DNA of 64,000 nucleotides from Paracoccaceae bacterium. Lineage in GTDB: Bacteria > Pseudomonadota > Alphaproteobacteria > Rhodobacterales > Rhodobacteraceae. The stretch is taken from NCBI GenBank assembly GCA_028874915.1, contig JAPPHA010000116.1:138605-202604 (forward strand). The letters are read 5' to 3'. Positions 3,830 through 44,774 of the stretch are shown piece after piece (position 1 is the first letter of the stretch; each line of letters opens with the position of its first letter). The notes under the pieces are model-generated. The model made no database searches, was not told the DNA's origin, and saw only the letters and a program-made list of their open reading frames with translations. Both the position numbers and the translations under genes were made by a program.

Positions 3830-4720
3830 GTGCCGTCGCAGCCCGGTCCGGAATCAGGGCAGGGCGATCATACCTCTCGGGTGCCAGTCCGGACGCAGCA
3901 CGAATTTCGATTTCAGCGCCCAACTGGTGGCTTCAGGCGAGCGCCGGCGCTACAGGCCTCGACCGTGTCGATTCCCGAAATCCGGGTGAAGCTCGCGGGC
4001 GTCGCCTTCGGCGTCGCTCCCCACCCCTTCGCGACCCGGATGCTGGAATGATTCTCCACCTGCCTATACCATTCCCGGAACCGGCCCGCCTTCTGGAGGA
4101 TCCGGGCACATCCCATCAATCGTCGTGGAAACGACGCCCCATGTGCGGTGTCCACGTGGCCGTTGCGGCATCTCGAACCGGTCCCGACGCCCCCCTGGAC
4201 GGCCGGTTCCTTGGGCTTTCACCTCTCGCCGACGCCGGGAATCTCACCCTGATTTTCGCGCCGCACGATCGCCTGGTCGGCGGCGTGCGAAGGCGAGGCA
4301 CAAGGATTGGAAACGTCACTTCCAGAAGCGGATTGATCGGCTCGCCGTCTGCATCCGCAACCGGTCGACGACCCGCACCCGCGTGTGGCCTGCGATCTCG
4401 TCCAGGCCTTTGACGTGATTGTCCCGCCGTCCTCCAAGACGAAGGAAATGAGCTTGAAGTCCGACCGCAAGATCAGGACGAAGACCGTGTACTCGATGCT
4501 GGGTCCGGCGCGCTTCCGGTTCAGGCGGAAGTCGGCGTGGATGTGCCCGAAATTTGGCAAGCGGCTCGTCATCGAGAATGAGGCCTGCACGAGCAGAACA
4601 CGCGCCTGGGACGGCTTTGTCGATCAGCACGTTGGCGGCGCGAATGCAGTCACGGACGGCACGGTCTTCGTCGACCGGGACATGAACGGTGCAAGGGGCA
4701 TCATGCTGCGCGCGCTCAAC
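3830..4720 (+). pseudogene. decayed TnpB/OrfB-like gene (IS607/Fanzor-like DRDxNGAR type), frame-disrupted and missing catalytic and zinc ligands
   Basis: TnpB-like segments are spread over three + frames. Frame 2 (3830-4051) ends in TGA. Frame 1 (about 4141-4260) has CGVHVAVAAS where a GxDxG-type RuvC-I motif is expected. Frame 3 (4263-4360) reads RRRAKARHKDWKRHFQKRIDRLAVCIRN. Frame 2 (from 4337) reads VDDPHPRVACDLVQAFDVIVPPSSKTKEMSLKSDRKIRTKTVYSML..RFRFRR...GKRLVIENEACTSRTRAWDGFVDQHVGGANAVTDGTVFVDRDMNGARGIMLRAL. GC3 is high (about 85%) in the last segment. Boundaries are approximate. Confidence 0.55.
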
Positions 4721-5105
4721 GGCAAATTGTGCCGTTTACCGAGGTTTCTGTCCGCCGATAGAGTGATGACAGTTGGGTACCGCCGATCTATGATGGTGCG
4801 CAGGATCGCCGCGTTGTTTCCCTTTGCGCGGTACACCGGATCGCATGGAACCATGAACGGCATTTTCAATTTGGCCGTCCCGACATGCTCGGGAGCCGGA
4901 GAACTGTGCCGTCGGGCTGCGAGCGAAGTACGCCCCATCAGCACTGGCGTTCCTTTCGGTACCTCCTTCATCCTTGGGCGGTCCGAAACGACTCGCGCGG
5001 GCATTCGGACAAGGACATTGGCACCGCGTGAAGCCCGCTGCGGGCAGGAGTCGGCGTGAGGCTCCCGACGGTTCGCATCCGTCGCGCCGGACCGGTGGAT
5101 TCCAC

Positions 5106-6158
5106 GTGAATCCCCAGGGACTACCGACGAATACCCAGGAGATCCGCGCGGTCATCTCGCGTATCCCGCGGGTTGAACTCGCCTGCCTACCGACGCCGCT
5201 TCAGGAAGCGAGACGCCTGTCGGAGATTCTGGGAGGGCCGCGCATCTTCGTCAAACGGGACGATTTGACCGGGGTGGCACTGGGGGGCAACAAGACCCGG
5301 AACCTCGAGTTTCGCCTTGCCGCCGCAAAGGCGTCGGGGGCCGACCTGATCGTGATGGAGCTGGACCAGCAGTCCAATTCTGCCCGGTTGACCACGGGCT
5401 GCTGCAATCGCCTCGGCATGGATACGGTCCTGATCCTGGAAGGCTCGGAGCCGGACGTGGTTCAGGGGAACCTGCTCTTGGATCATCTTCTCGGAGCCGA
5501 GGTACGCTTCGCCTCGTCGCGTTCGGAGCAGTTGCGGATGAGCCGGGAAGCGGTGGCGGAGGCTTGGGCCGCCGGCCGGACTCCTTGCCTGCTGAACGAC
5601 ATTCCGATGTTCGACGAGGGATCGGCGATTGCGTATCTGGAGAGTGCCTGTGAAGTCGTCGAGTCACTCGAGGTGCAAGGCCTTGCGCCGGATTGCCTGT
5701 ACATGTCGTCGTCCGGCAAGGGACAGGCCGGTCATGTCCTCGCGCAGAAGTTGCTGGGCGGCTTCCGGGTACGCGGTATTACGGCGACTGACGAGTTCGA
5801 CATCCCGCCGCGCGGCGCGGCGATCGCAAATCGCGCGGCTCGAACGCTCGGCCTCGACATCACAGTGGCGCCCGAGGATTTCGTCAACGACGCCGACTAT
5901 GTCGGTGCCGCGTACGGAATCCCCAGCGAAGCCGGTAACGAAGCGGTACGCCTATTCGCGAGAACGGAAGGAATCGTGCTCGACCCCATTTACACCGGCA
6001 AGGCTGCGGCCGGAATGATTGGTCATGTCCGCCGCGGCGACTTCAAGAGCGGGGAGATCGTAGTTTTCGTCCACTCCGGTGGGACGCCCGCAATTTTCAC
6101 GCACAATCATTTATGGCTCGACAACAAGGCCAAACCACAAGGAGGAGAAAAACCATGA
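5106..6158 (+). CDS. PLP-dependent enzyme, ACC deaminase / D-cysteine desulfhydrase family
   Basis: ORF track 4974..6158. Probable GTG start at 5106 (VNPQGLPTNTQEIRAVISRIPRVELACLPTPLQ...). It carries the PLP-lysine motif KRDDLTGVALGGNKTRNLEF and C-terminal LDPIYTGKAAAGM. Its stop overlaps the next start (ATGA at 6155-6158). Confidence 0.85.
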   Translation: MNPQGLPTNTQEIRAVISRIPRVELACLPTPLQEARRLSEILGGPRIFVKRDDLTGVALGGNKTRNLEFRLAAAKASGADLIVMELDQQSNSARLTTGCCNRLGMDTVLILEGSEPDVVQGNLLLDHLLGAEVRFASSRSEQLRMSREAVAEAWAAGRTPCLLNDIPMFDEGSAIAYLESACEVVESLEVQGLAPDCLYMSSSGKGQAGHVLAQKLLGGFRVRGITATDEFDIPPRGAAIANRAARTLGLDITVAPEDFVNDADYVGAAYGIPSEAGNEAVRLFARTEGIVLDPIYTGKAAAGMIGHVRRGDFKSGEIVVFVHSGGTPAIFTHNHLWLDNKAKPQGGEKP

Positions 6159-18686: not shown

Positions 18687-18694
18687 CTCCTGTT
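18687..18694. repeat. 8-bp direct repeat CTCCTGTT (putative target-site duplication, cysQ-proximal copy)
   Basis: Identical to 20019-20026. It abuts the outer edge of the terminal inverted repeat. On the minus strand it reads AACAGGAG, a Shine-Dalgarno-like sequence 13 nt upstream of the cysQ ATG. Confidence 0.75.
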
Positions 18695-18718
18695 GGGACT
18701 TATAAAGGAAGGTTGACG
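18695..18718. repeat. terminal inverted repeat (tnpB 3'-proximal end) GGGACTTATAAAGGAAGGTTGACG
   Basis: The reverse complement of 19995-20018 is GGGACTTACAAAGAAAGGTTGACG, a 22/24 match (mismatches at positions 9 and 14). Confidence 0.85.
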
Positions 18719-18721
18719 CCA

Positions 18722-19922
18722 TCAGGCGGCCCTCCGGTTGATTTCGCGGTTCACAGGCCCGTTGCCCCGGCAGCCTCCCCGCGCAGACGCCCCAGTCACC
18801 AAGGCCAGTATGTTCGCCGCTGCATTGAGATCGGCATGATCCGCATGGCAGCACGCCACGCACTCGAAACGATCCCGCCTCTTCCGTGATCCGGCGTCGA
18901 CGACGACGCACGATGCGCAGGTTCGGCTCGTATAGGCCGGGTCAACCGCCACGACACGGCGGGCCTTGTATTCAAGCATCCGTCGGAGACCGCCCCAGCC
19001 GGTCTCCAGGATCACCCGATTGAGACCGGCCTTCTGGCGCACGTTGCGCCCGGGCTCCTCCACCGTGCCCTTCGCACTCCGCGTCATGCCCGCCGTGTTC
19101 AGATCCTCGATCACCACGGTCCCCGCCGTGTTGGCGAGAGCGCGGCTGGTCCTGTGGTGCCAGTCATGACGTTTCATGGCGATGCGCCGTGTCGTCCTGG
19201 CCAACCGCTGGCGGGTCCGATCCCGCCTCCGGGAACCGCGCCTCTGTCGCGCAAGCTGCTTCCGATAGCGCCGAACGCGGGCATGGAGCCTTCGGGCATC
19301 CGGGGCCGGGAATATCCGTCGGTCACTCGTCGCAATCTGCCCCGCGTTCATGTCAACGCCCACGACATGGCCGTTGTCCGAACACTCCACCGCCGGGACA
19401 CGATAGCAGACCACCGCAGTCCATTTCCCACCCTCGCGCTTGAGCACAGCGCTGACGGGTTCGCCGTTGGCGTAAGGATCTCCGCCCCGGCGGCGGACAG
19501 TCATCCAGCCAAAGCCCGGAACGCGGATACGGCCGCCGTCGACTTGCACGCCCGAAACAATGCCGATGCTGTTGAAGCGGCGGTGTCCCTTGAACCGGGG
19601 AAAGCCCGCACCCGCCTGTCTTCACCCGCCGGAAGAACCCCTTGAAGGCCTCGTCCAGGCGCTTGAGAGTGCCCCGCTGGATCGCCACTGCGGTGTCAGC
19701 CATGCCGGGCAAGGCGCTGCGGCAGACCGTGAGCGACTTCGCCTGGTCGATGTAGGTGATCGACCGACCCGTCTTTCGGTAGCAGTCGATACGCTCCTCC
19801 AGCGCCGCGTTGTACAGCTGCCGCTGGGCCTCGAGCGTGCGGTCGAGCCAGCGCCAGTTCGACCTCTTCTGCGGAAGCAGCCGATAGGTGATGTTTCTGA
19901 ATTCTGTGGTATCGTCCGCCAC
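18722..19922 (-). pseudogene. tnpB: tnpB (IS605 OrfB-type RNA-guided nuclease) interrupted by one frameshift near 19607-19613
   Basis: ORF-track pieces 19353..19922 (MADDTTEFRNITYRLLPQ...AFKGFFRRVKTGG) and 18722..19549 belong to one gene. The second frame is open from 19621 and reads AGFPRFKGHRRFNSIGIVSGVQVDGG... Conserved elements are intact: RuvC-I GVDMNAG, RuvC-II VVIEDLN, zinc ribbon CASC...CVAC and RuvC-III HADLNAAANI. Confidence 0.88.
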
Positions 19923-19994
19923 GCGCGGTTGACCCTCCTACGGTCATTTGGTGTGGAGCAGCGCACGATGCTTCCCGCACGCGCGCACTACCAC

Positions 19995-20018
19995 CGTCAA
20001 CCTTTCTTTGTAAGTCCC
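19995..20018. repeat. terminal inverted repeat (tnpB 5'-proximal end) CGTCAACCTTTCTTTGTAAGTCCC
   Basis: Partner of 18695-18718 (22/24). Confidence 0.85.
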
Positions 20019-20026
20019 CTCCTGTT
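20019..20026. repeat. 8-bp direct repeat CTCCTGTT (putative target-site duplication, alkB-proximal copy)
   Basis: Identical to 18687-18694. The ninth base outward differs, so the repeat is exactly 8 bp. Confidence 0.75.
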
Positions 20027-41034: not shown

Positions 41035-42239
41035 CACGGGACCCCGGCAGGACCGGACCGCTGTCGGGAATCCGGGTCGTCGATCTCAGCCGGATTCTTG
41101 CCGGACCGTTCTGCACCATGAACCTCGGTGACATGGGCGCCGAGGTCATCAAGATCGAGCAACCCGGAAAGGGCGACGATACCCGGGGCTGGGGCCCCCC
41201 TTTCGTGGGCGGTGAGGCCGCATATTTCCTGGGAGTGAACCGGAACAAGCGGGGGATGACTCTGAATCTCAAGGACCCGCGTGGTCTGGAGATGTTGAGG
41301 TCACTCCTGCGGTCGGCCGATGTCATCGTCGAAAACTTCAGGACGGGAACGCTCGAGAACTGGGGGATCACGCGGGAGTGGCGCGAACGGGAAGCGCCGC
41401 GCCTCGTGCACTGCGAGATCTCCGGATACGGCGATGAGGGACCGCGTAGCGGAATGCCCGGATACGACTTCCTGATGCAGGCGGAGTGTGGATTGATGAG
41501 CATCACCGGTGCCCCGGACGGGGAACCGATGAAACTCGGAGTCGCGATCGTCGACGTTTGCACCGGAATGTATGCGTCGATGGGAATCCTCGCCGCCCTC
41601 AACGACCGCAACAGAACCGGCCGCGGGCAAAAATTCGAGGTCTCGCTGTATTCGACCGGGCTCTCGATGCTGGTGAACGTCGCTTCCAATCACCTTGCCA
41701 GCGGAAGGGAGCCGGGTCGCTATGGCAACGGTCATCCGAACATCGTTCCCTATCGCGCTTTCGAATGCTCGGACGGCAGCATCGCGCTCGCGGTCGGCAA
41801 CGATTCCCAGTTCTCCCGCCTCGCGGAGTGCCTGAACCACCCGGAGTGGTCCGCCGACGATCGATTCGCCCGCAACGCGGATCGCGTTCGAAACCGGGAA
41901 GCGATCGACGCCCTCATCTCCGAGGCGCTGGCCGAGCGCAGTGTCGACGCCTGTCTGGAGCAACTGCGCGAGCGCAACATTCCCTGCAGCCCGATCAACG
42001 GTGTGCACGAAGCGATCGCCGACCCGCAGACCGCAGCTTGTGACATGATTGCAGAACTTGAGCATCCGACCGCAGGGGCGATCCGAATGCTTGGAATTCC
42101 GTACAGTTTCTCCGACACGCCGGCCTCGGTCGAACTGCCGCCACCCCGACTCGGTTCGGACACCGAGGCGATCCTGTCAGAGGCGCTCCACCTGGATCCG
42201 GAAACCATCGCGAAATACCGGCGAGACGGTGTGATCTGA
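41031..42239 (+). CDS. family III CoA-transferase (CaiB/BaiF/Frc-like)
   Basis: ORF track 41031..42239, with an ATGA overlap. Contains LSGIRVVDLSRILAGPFCTMNLGDMGAEVIKIE...DVIVENFRTGTLE...GYDFLMQAECGLMSITG. Confidence 0.9.
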   Translation: MTRDPGRTGPLSGIRVVDLSRILAGPFCTMNLGDMGAEVIKIEQPGKGDDTRGWGPPFVGGEAAYFLGVNRNKRGMTLNLKDPRGLEMLRSLLRSADVIVENFRTGTLENWGITREWREREAPRLVHCEISGYGDEGPRSGMPGYDFLMQAECGLMSITGAPDGEPMKLGVAIVDVCTGMYASMGILAALNDRNRTGRGQKFEVSLYSTGLSMLVNVASNHLASGREPGRYGNGHPNIVPYRAFECSDGSIALAVGNDSQFSRLAECLNHPEWSADDRFARNADRVRNREAIDALISEALAERSVDACLEQLRERNIPCSPINGVHEAIADPQTAACDMIAELEHPTAGAIRMLGIPYSFSDTPASVELPPPRLGSDTEAILSEALHLDPETIAKYRRDGVI

Positions 42240-43913: not shown

Positions 43914-44774
43914 TCAGACTGCAGAATACAACCCGTAAGAAAATTCGACGCCACCTGGAAACGAGACATCGGCACTGGCACCACCGGGTGAAAACAAGCG
44001 GAACCGAATCCAGTCAATGACGCGAACTGCCTCGCCCGCCTTGCCGACCAGAAGCGGGCGCTCAGGGGAGCCGACAACAAGCGGTTTGCTCTTCAACGGG
44101 ACCGATCGAGCCAACGAGGACAGTGTGTTTGAATAGCCACTCAGAATCATTGCAGTGCACGTAGCCGTAAGTTTCCGGTTGGTCCTTCGTCGTGGCCTCG
44201 GCGCCCGGCCCTCTGTGTTCGAACACCTTTCGCCTCGGTCCCTTGCAAGCTCGATGTCCTCTCGCCTCCTTGCATTCGGCACCAACAAATCATAACGACA
44301 CGTCGCGCTGATGGGCTGTCGCATTCGGTTGGTCACTCGTCGCTTGCATCGGCTGGGGCCGATCAAGTCGGAACGAGGTGCAGCAATTACGTTTGCGGAA
44401 GAAAGAATTACATCAATACGTGGCAGTGTGGAATTGTAGAACTCCAAAGATGACGTCGATTTACGATGGAATCTGAAGGGCATCAATTCTTCTGACGGTT
44501 TGAACCACTTCGATGATGTGTTTATTGTAAGGGGCGTCAACGGAGTGCTCGTTCGCCAGTCGGACGCTTTTACAGGCAACGGTGTCGACCTCCATACGCC
44601 CGACCAAAAATTTAATGGAGCGTGAGCTATCGTCATTCCTGGTGTACGGGTGTGGCGCGCCAGGGCCGTGCAACGGCAGCAGCTGCGCAGGTTGCAGGCG
44701 AAGACCAGATTGGGTACTAATTTGGCTTGCGTTCGCACGATTGCGACGACACCATATGTGTTGCCGGGCCGCAA
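43914..44774 (-). CDS. hypothetical protein (orphan 286-codon ORF in low-GC region; coding status uncertain)
   Basis: ORF track 43914..44774. It is the only long open frame in a stretch of about 40-50% GC where the other five frames are full of stops. The product is R/S/T/P-rich with no motif I recognise, and GC3 is about equal to local GC. Support comes from ORF length only. Confidence 0.3.
   Translation of the reverse strand: MRPGNTYGVVAIVRTQAKLVPNLVFACNLRSCCRCTALARHTRTPGMTIAHAPLNFWSGVWRSTPLPVKASDWRTSTPLTPLTINTSSKWFKPSEELMPFRFHRKSTSSLEFYNSTLPRIDVILSSANVIAAPRSDLIGPSRCKRRVTNRMRQPISATCRYDLLVPNARRREDIELARDRGERCSNTEGRAPRPRRRTNRKLTATCTAMILSGYSNTLSSLARSVPLKSKPLVVGSPERPLLVGKAGEAVRVIDWIRFRLFSPGGASADVSFPGGVEFSYGLYSAV

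Follow-up and report, generated by a model that had tools for sequence, protein, structure and literature searches.

A tnpB-carrying bacterial element with terminal inverted repeats and 8-bp target-site duplications

In a 64,000-nucleotide stretch of DNA from Paracoccaceae bacterium (assembly GCA_028874915.1, contig JAPPHA010000116.1, positions 138,605 to 202,604 of the forward strand), which as a whole we call the window, we identified a 1,324-bp element on the minus strand (18695-20018 of the window) that carries tnpB as its sole gene, likewise on the minus strand, lies between terminal inverted repeats (TIRs) and is flanked by an 8-bp target-site duplication (TSD). The insertion site is located between alkB-like and cysQ-like genes. 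Our favoured reading, to which we assign a probability of roughly 0.75, is that the element belongs to a non-autonomous TIR transposon family that has tnpB and a guide RNA as its cargo and is moved in trans by a DDE-type transposase, and that the window copy is decaying.

Ends and target-site duplication of the window element

The right-end TIR occupies 18695-18718 on the minus strand (GGGACTTATAAAGGAAGGTTGACG as written, CGTCAACCTTCCTTTATAAGTCCC in tnpB orientation) and the left-end TIR occupies 19995-20018 on the same strand (CGTCAACCTTTCTTTGTAAGTCCC as written, GGGACTTACAAAGAAAGGTTGACG in tnpB orientation), and the two 24-nt arms are complementary at 22 of 24 positions. Outside them stand two copies of one octamer, CTCCTGTT on the plus strand and AACAGGAG in tnpB orientation, adjoining the right end at 18687-18694 and the left end at 20019-20026 (CTCCTGTT again). 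Given the local composition, such an 8/8 match at fixed positions would arise by chance with a probability of about 2e-5 per site. A previous reading of the window, made from its letters without database searches (the sequence-only reading), had claimed both the 22/24 repeat and the identical flanking octamers, and both claims hold at these positions. With up to three mismatches allowed, the 24-mer is confined to these two sites within the 64 kb and does not appear in any of 100 shuffles, and across the whole window the TIR is the longest inverted repeat with arms no more than 4 kb apart and complementarity above 90%.

Relatives share the ends and duplicate different octamers

A protein search retrieved a family of TnpBs of about 400 aa, for which DNA was fetched from members at 51-97% identity, and public collections were scanned with the TIR as a pattern. 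Read from the outside inwards, both ends of these elements follow GGGRCTTAY...GGTTGAC, a pattern present at both termini of over 12 loci that come from different taxa, with a TIR of about 24 nt that extends up to about 36 nt. The right-end pattern CGTCAACCTT......TAAGTCCC is kept down to about 60% TnpB identity and is looser among members at 51-59%; overall, conservation of the ends far exceeds what would be expected from the divergence of the proteins. The longest repeats were observed at L027 (7026-8623) and L036 (about 3871-5254), where the inverted repeat reaches about 36 nt (TTGACNGCNTCAYGCCGCC); the left end therefore repeats, in inverted orientation, the final codons of tnpB together with the stop.

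Ten independent insertions, spanning 51-97% TnpB identity, have 8-bp direct flanks that are specific to the site. Eight of these are perfect (8/8): in tnpB orientation, as are all that follow, they read AACAGGAG in the window, TATGAGTA at L004, TATGGGAG at L006, ATAATTCC at L013, TATGAAGA at L009, TTTCAAAA at L027, AAACGGTT at L035 and TTGTGAAA at L043. The other two match at 7/8, with AAAAAGAG and AAAAAGGG at L036 and TATCCTTG and TTTCCTTG at L126. Because the octamer differs from site to site, it is target DNA and not element sequence, as had been proposed for the window copy. Moreover, one contig of a Thalassobaculaceae metagenome-assembled genome (MAG; CBDEUR01) holds two near-identical copies, L004 and L006, with different octamers, which points to recent movement within one genome.

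The source metagenome of the window also holds several copies, including those at a tyrS locus (L001 and L125) and at a PhyH/EamA locus (L126), and within the 90% cluster of its TnpB a single 1.36-Mb contig accounts for intact as well as frameshifted forms. Short-read contigs end within the element, and such breaks are expected of a repeat.

The same ends occur without tnpB

The family ends are not restricted to elements that encode TnpB. On the chromosome of an Alphaproteobacteria MAG, we identified a 99-bp miniature inverted-repeat transposable element (MITE; L012, 1465-1563) with family TIRs, no open reading frame (ORF) and its own 8-bp duplication, TTATGAAG. A 1,316-bp element at L008 (6295-7610) has the family TIRs around a gene for an NTP_transf_8 nucleotidyltransferase in place of tnpB, and solitary family ends in L003 and L011 adjoin other small genes. 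Since the MITE and the nucleotidyltransferase element share the TIRs, the repeats are transposon ends by themselves, and tnpB is cargo. This supports the suggestion, made from the window alone, of a non-autonomous element that has captured tnpB.

The spacing of the cargo is constant. In all members, across about 50% protein divergence, the tnpB stop lies no more than about 10 nt from the right repeat, and at most about 100-130 nt separate the start from the left repeat. This constancy indicates that the unit moves and evolves as one piece, with a new duplication each time, and argues for capture of tnpB.

The tnpB gene of the window copy is a pseudogene

The window tnpB is a frameshifted pseudogene. 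Its C-terminal fragment, a 275-aa ORF at 18722-19549 on the minus strand, contains the RuvC and zinc-ribbon motifs and ends with a stop codon 3 nt from the right-end repeat; its N-terminal fragment, at 19353-19922 on the minus strand, follows the true frame in the first ~103 codons only (to about 19613). A single additional G causes the break: the G-run at 19611-19613 (minus strand) reads GGG here and GG in the intact copy L001. The same split ORF was called in two other assemblies of the window locus (L038 and L039), which makes a read error in the window unlikely. A simple scan found no sigma-70-like promoter.

The sequence-only reading had stated that the element encloses only a TnpB; this is right in that tnpB is the sole gene and its RuvC and zinc-ribbon residues are present, and it has to be amended in that the frame is broken by the extra G. 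In translation we recognized the motifs VGVDMN, VVIEDL, HADHAD and CxxC...CxxC, with the D/E/D residues in place, and the domain search that had been proposed matched the C-terminal fragment to OrfB_IS605 (PF01385; 3.8e-14) and Cas12f1-like_TNB (PF07282; 4.5e-17). An intact homologue of 399 aa (P0001, at L001), encoded elsewhere in the same metagenome, is 97% identical in protein sequence once the frame is restored, and the two copies are 97.7% identical in DNA. This homologue passes the general NCBIfam model guided_TnpB (NF040570) with 212 bits against a cutoff of 100, while the next-best model, IS200_TnpB, scores 154 against a cutoff of 425 and IS607_TnpB scores 97 against a cutoff of 350.

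Restriction of the architecture to a narrow TnpB clade

For comparison, we searched 80 control TnpB loci on viral contigs, at 30-44% identity, in the same way as the family members, and none of the 80 had both a TIR matching at 16/20 or better and a duplication matching at 7/8 or better. In an exhaustive search that yielded 20,046 TnpB-like clusters (50%-identity representatives), only a handful were at least 50% identical to this TnpB. Taken together, the empty control set and the scarcity of close relatives place the architecture in one narrow clade of TnpB, which is consistent with a single capture event. The closest plasmid TnpB, from PLSDB, is 42% identical. Judging from record names, the clade occurs mostly in marine or symbiont-type MAGs. 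Among TnpB relatives at 42-47% identity, P0266 (590 aa) and P0285 (527 aa) are longer than the core of about 400 aa, and P0266 owes its extra length to about 175 additional residues at the N terminus.

A putative conserved structured RNA reaching into the right repeat

Conservation at the nucleotide level was observed over the last ~110 nt of tnpB and the right repeat. A putative omega-RNA scaffold at 18695-18806 (minus strand) overlaps the 3' end of tnpB and runs into the right-end repeat. The consensus fold of nine members comprises five helices and 24 pairs; 93.5% of cells are paired, and changes on both sides are seen in six of the pairs. Its covariation is 0.218, compared with 0.130 in shuffles (none of 500 reach it), and the signal collapses in slid-partner controls; these values come from nine sequences, with the structure taken from the same alignment that was scored. 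In helix 5, bases just upstream of the tnpB stop pair with the inner CGTCA of the right repeat. Rfam returned no match to an omega-RNA family. The 24-bp panhandle suggested in the sequence-only reading might in principle form on a transcript that reads through both ends. Judged from the alignment, this conserved structured RNA is presumably the omega-RNA scaffold, with the right repeat as its 3' part. An omega-RNA that runs through the right repeat would parallel the reported case of Fanzor elements, whose guide-RNA scaffold includes TIR and TSD sequence (PMC10711439).

Genomic context of the window element

The neighbours of the element encode a CysQ-like protein (Inositol_P) and an AlkB-like protein (2OG-FeII_Oxy_2), with DnaK and DnaJ farther out. 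No recombinase or transposase gene adjoins the element, which bears out the statement in the sequence-only reading that none lies inside or next to it. Across assemblies of the window locus, the left end is polymorphic at precisely the two positions that mismatch the right end: the variant CAAAGAA occurs in the window, L039 and L042, and TAAAGGA, the perfect complement of the right end, occurs in L038, L040 and L041. Strain variation could account for this polymorphism, as could conversion of one end by the other.

Elsewhere in the window, a 35-nt inverted repeat with 74% complementarity has its arms 3 kb apart at 41135-41169 and 44172-44206, in or near long ORFs; our guess is that it marks two opposite-facing paralogous genes and not a mobile element. 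Over the whole window (1-64000) we found no tRNA genes and no Rfam families at the gathering threshold.

Proposed mobilization in trans and the search for a partner

We hypothesize that a DDE-type transposase supplied in trans would bind the repeats and make 8-bp staggered cuts in the target, and that tnpB may have been captured once, replacing or joining the transposase gene. The omega-RNA would be transcribed from the 3' end of tnpB through the right repeat into the flank, so that the repeat would serve as the 3' part of the scaffold. In intact copies TnpB might help to retain or spread the element, whereas in the window copy it is dead.

Among known insertion sequences with GG termini and an 8-bp duplication, candidates for the partner are the ISNwi1 group of IS1595, ISL3, IS256 and IS6. 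In the ISNwi1 group the direct repeats are 8 bp long, the ends follow ggnnatTAT, passenger genes are known, and the DDE(K) transposase has a zinc finger at its N terminus. The ends GGGGATTAT (L035), GGGAATTAT (L043) and GGGACTTAT (the right end in the window) would fit this consensus.

The scan of GTDB representatives gave 12 matches. Five loci (L004, L006, L008, L009 and L013) hold five complete TIR-bounded elements, four with tnpB and L008 with the nucleotidyltransferase gene; the remaining matches comprise the L012 MITE and solitary ends or chance matches. Matches in JGI metagenomes were mostly due to chance and lay inside genes, IMG/VR viral contigs contained no TIR-bounded transposase, and PLSDB plasmids, searched with one TIR and then with 25 concatenated TIR variants, contained none. 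No IS1595-type zinc-finger transposase was detected by a crude motif scan of 1.26 Mb, and there was no Y1 TnpA or serine recombinase inside or beside any copy examined. IS256-type genes (Transposase_mut) near solitary TIRs in L003 (1708-3151) and L007 (734-2042) have inverted repeats of their own that differ from the family ends, and we regard them as unrelated insertions; the one in L007 lies between 306-nt inverted duplicates beside an IS3-like helix-turn-helix gene. Other copies and a DDE partner with the same TIRs had both been named as things to look for; copies with different octamers exist, whereas such a partner did not turn up.

Several observations weigh against mobilization by a DDE-type transposase in trans. 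No transposase bounded by family TIRs was found in GTDB representatives, JGI metagenomes, IMG/VR or PLSDB, in genome and metagenome scans that used near-exact TIR patterns and one genome per species, nor was one found in the 64-kb window or in about 1.2 Mb of fetched loci. The empty site, which we reconstruct for the window element as tagtttgatgcg AACAGGAG aggttcccaaac, was not recovered, as five of five assemblies of the window locus carry the element; a look-up of the exact AlkB protein returned occupied or truncated loci only and no empty site, and the nearest CysQ orthologue is only 62% identical. There are also copies without a clean duplication, namely the tnpB copies L001, L002, L016, L037, L044 and L125, and the nucleotidyltransferase element L008 (GAACGTTC versus ATTCGAAT). 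For some of these, recombination between copies offers an explanation of the absent duplication: L001 and L125, at the tyrS locus, have the left flank and left repeat in common and differ in their right repeats (CGTCAAT versus CCCAAAA at the centre) and right-hand genes, a pattern that such recombination fits. The left flank of the window copy seemed to resemble that of L001, but the resemblance is not significant, as 273 of 300 shuffles score as well.

The remaining observation of this kind concerns the target sites, which we reconstructed in tnpB orientation for the window, L004, L006, L009, L013, L027, L035, L036, L043 and L126 (n=10). All ten have A or T at both +1 and +2, G stands at position -1 in 9/10 and C at -2 in 6/10, and the far boundary of the target does not mirror this pattern (C at +9 in only 3/10). 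The octamers are 67% A+T, compared with about 60% G+C in the local flanking DNA, and no fixed flank motif was found across the 10 sites. In these ten sites the asymmetry is not obviously produced by a symmetric DDE transposase alone; in this small sample it may be a signature resembling a target-adjacent motif (TAM).

Alternative explanations

In a bolder reading, a bacterial TnpB clade would have become the standing cargo of a transposon with TIRs and an 8-bp TSD, and the family would be a prokaryotic counterpart of Fanzor. The nuclease and its RNA would then shape the persistence of copies, and the target signature would be a TAM-like trace left when copies are retained or home under RNA guidance; in a stronger form of this proposal there would be no classical partner at all. 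We consider it unlikely.

A related and still less probable explanation is that the element is self-sufficient or depends on the host, with no DDE partner, and that TnpB with its omega-RNA, or host enzymes, leave 8-bp duplications by an undescribed route. The empty result of all partner searches speaks for it, as do the co-variation of the repeats with one narrow TnpB clade, the embedding of the right repeat in a conserved RNA, and the orientation-specific target, a hint that the location of copies depends in part on the TnpB side of the element. However, the MITE, with its own duplication, and the nucleotidyltransferase element use these ends without tnpB in cis, and the partner searches were shallow, relying on exact patterns and one genome per species. 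TnpB, a RuvC nuclease, is not known to catalyse strand transfer, which also counts against this route; the frameshifted window copy is neutral on this point.

It is very doubtful that the arrangement arose by nesting, that is, by insertion of an IS605-type tnpB element into an older and unrelated MITE that owned the TIRs and the duplication. A MITE with family ends does exist at L012, but the spacing of the tnpB start and stop to the repeats is kept in every member through the protein divergence noted above, where coincidental nesting would have to account for it, and no inner ends of IS605 type were seen.

Least tenable is a canonical IS200/IS605 (IS1341-type) element with tnpB only, served by a Y1 TnpA in trans, in which the octamer would represent the target motif and the element end. 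Transposition by Y1 and serine enzymes is not known to leave a target duplication. The octamer varies at every insertion and so does not represent a fixed target motif, and the 24-nt ends are true inverted repeats without self-complementarity. Folding of the terminal 100 nt is no better than that of shuffled sequence (z = -1.26, +1.49, -0.92 and +0.74), in agreement with the claim in the sequence-only reading that this is not an IS200/IS605 architecture, as the ends lack significant hairpins and no fixed motif is present. The homologue does pass the general TnpB model with IS200_TnpB as its next-best match, but that match, at 154, is far under the cutoff of 425; it is also the case that tnpB-only elements are usually filed in the IS200/IS605 family (PMC3627910). 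An IS607 element was rejected on the presence of TIRs and duplications, the lack of a serine recombinase nearby and the low IS607_TnpB score (97 versus a cutoff of 350).

Relation to known systems

Mobilization of TnpB by DDE transposases has precedents. A previous study described six DDE-associated TnpB branches (DDE-1 to DDE-6), all with inverted terminal repeats, as well as solo TnpBs whose ends match DDE-linked ones and which were inferred to be mobilized in trans (Altae-Tran et al. 2023, PNAS, PMC10691335). A 2026 review names the partners of these branches as IS630, ISL2 and IS1031 (PMC13565253). The family described here resembles those branches as a prokaryotic TnpB in a TIR element, with the 3' end of tnpB near one end and with solo copies; it differs in that no DDE gene was found in or near any member and in its 8-bp duplication. 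IS630, ISL2 and IS1031 elements produce duplications of 2-3 bp. We therefore rate the family as a probable variant of the published DDE-linked TnpBs, marked by its 8-bp duplication and the lack of a linked DDE gene. A literature search found no paper that pairs TnpB with an 8-bp duplication. The idea that this is a poorly described class of TnpB carrier has to be qualified, given the published DDE-associated TnpBs that have inverted ends (PMC10691335).

Elements with tnpB only have been described as having hairpin ends, no TIRs and no duplication, with insertion 3' of a fixed 4-5-nt motif (PMC3627910, PMC13565253). The window family shares with IS1341-type elements a single tnpB of about 400 aa with RuvC and zinc ribbon, a length of about 1.3 kb and a putative structured RNA over the 3' end of the gene, whereas its TIRs, variable 8-bp duplications and lack of significant hairpins set it apart. 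Likewise, it resembles Fanzor in having an RNA-guided nuclease as the cargo of a cut-and-paste-type element that is often non-autonomous and, here putatively, has its TIR in the scaffold (PMC10711439). Unlike Fanzor, it occurs in bacteria and encodes a compact protein of the canonical TnpB kind. MITEs, mobile insertion cassettes and passenger IS1595 elements (ISNwi1) offer a further likeness, being elements without a transposase that have TIRs of insertion-sequence type, a duplication of fixed length and varied or no cargo. The difference from passenger IS1595 is that no IS1595-type or other transposase with family ends was found in our scans.

Implications for TnpB biology

The family constitutes an exception to the textbook account of peel-and-paste transposition, as a coherent bacterial clade of tnpB-only elements that has both inverted repeats and target duplications. 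At present such copies are annotated as accessory genes of IS200/IS605 or plainly as "transposase", and for this clade that is wrong. In the current model of TnpB retention, the nuclease restores an element that has been excised scarlessly, and its target-adjacent motif is the target of the transposase. An element of DDE type leaves a break anyway, and here a variable 8-bp duplication stands at the position of the motif, so that the family would provide a natural test of that model. It would also serve as a bacterial model for the eukaryotic arrangement in which Fanzor resides between TIRs and TSDs.

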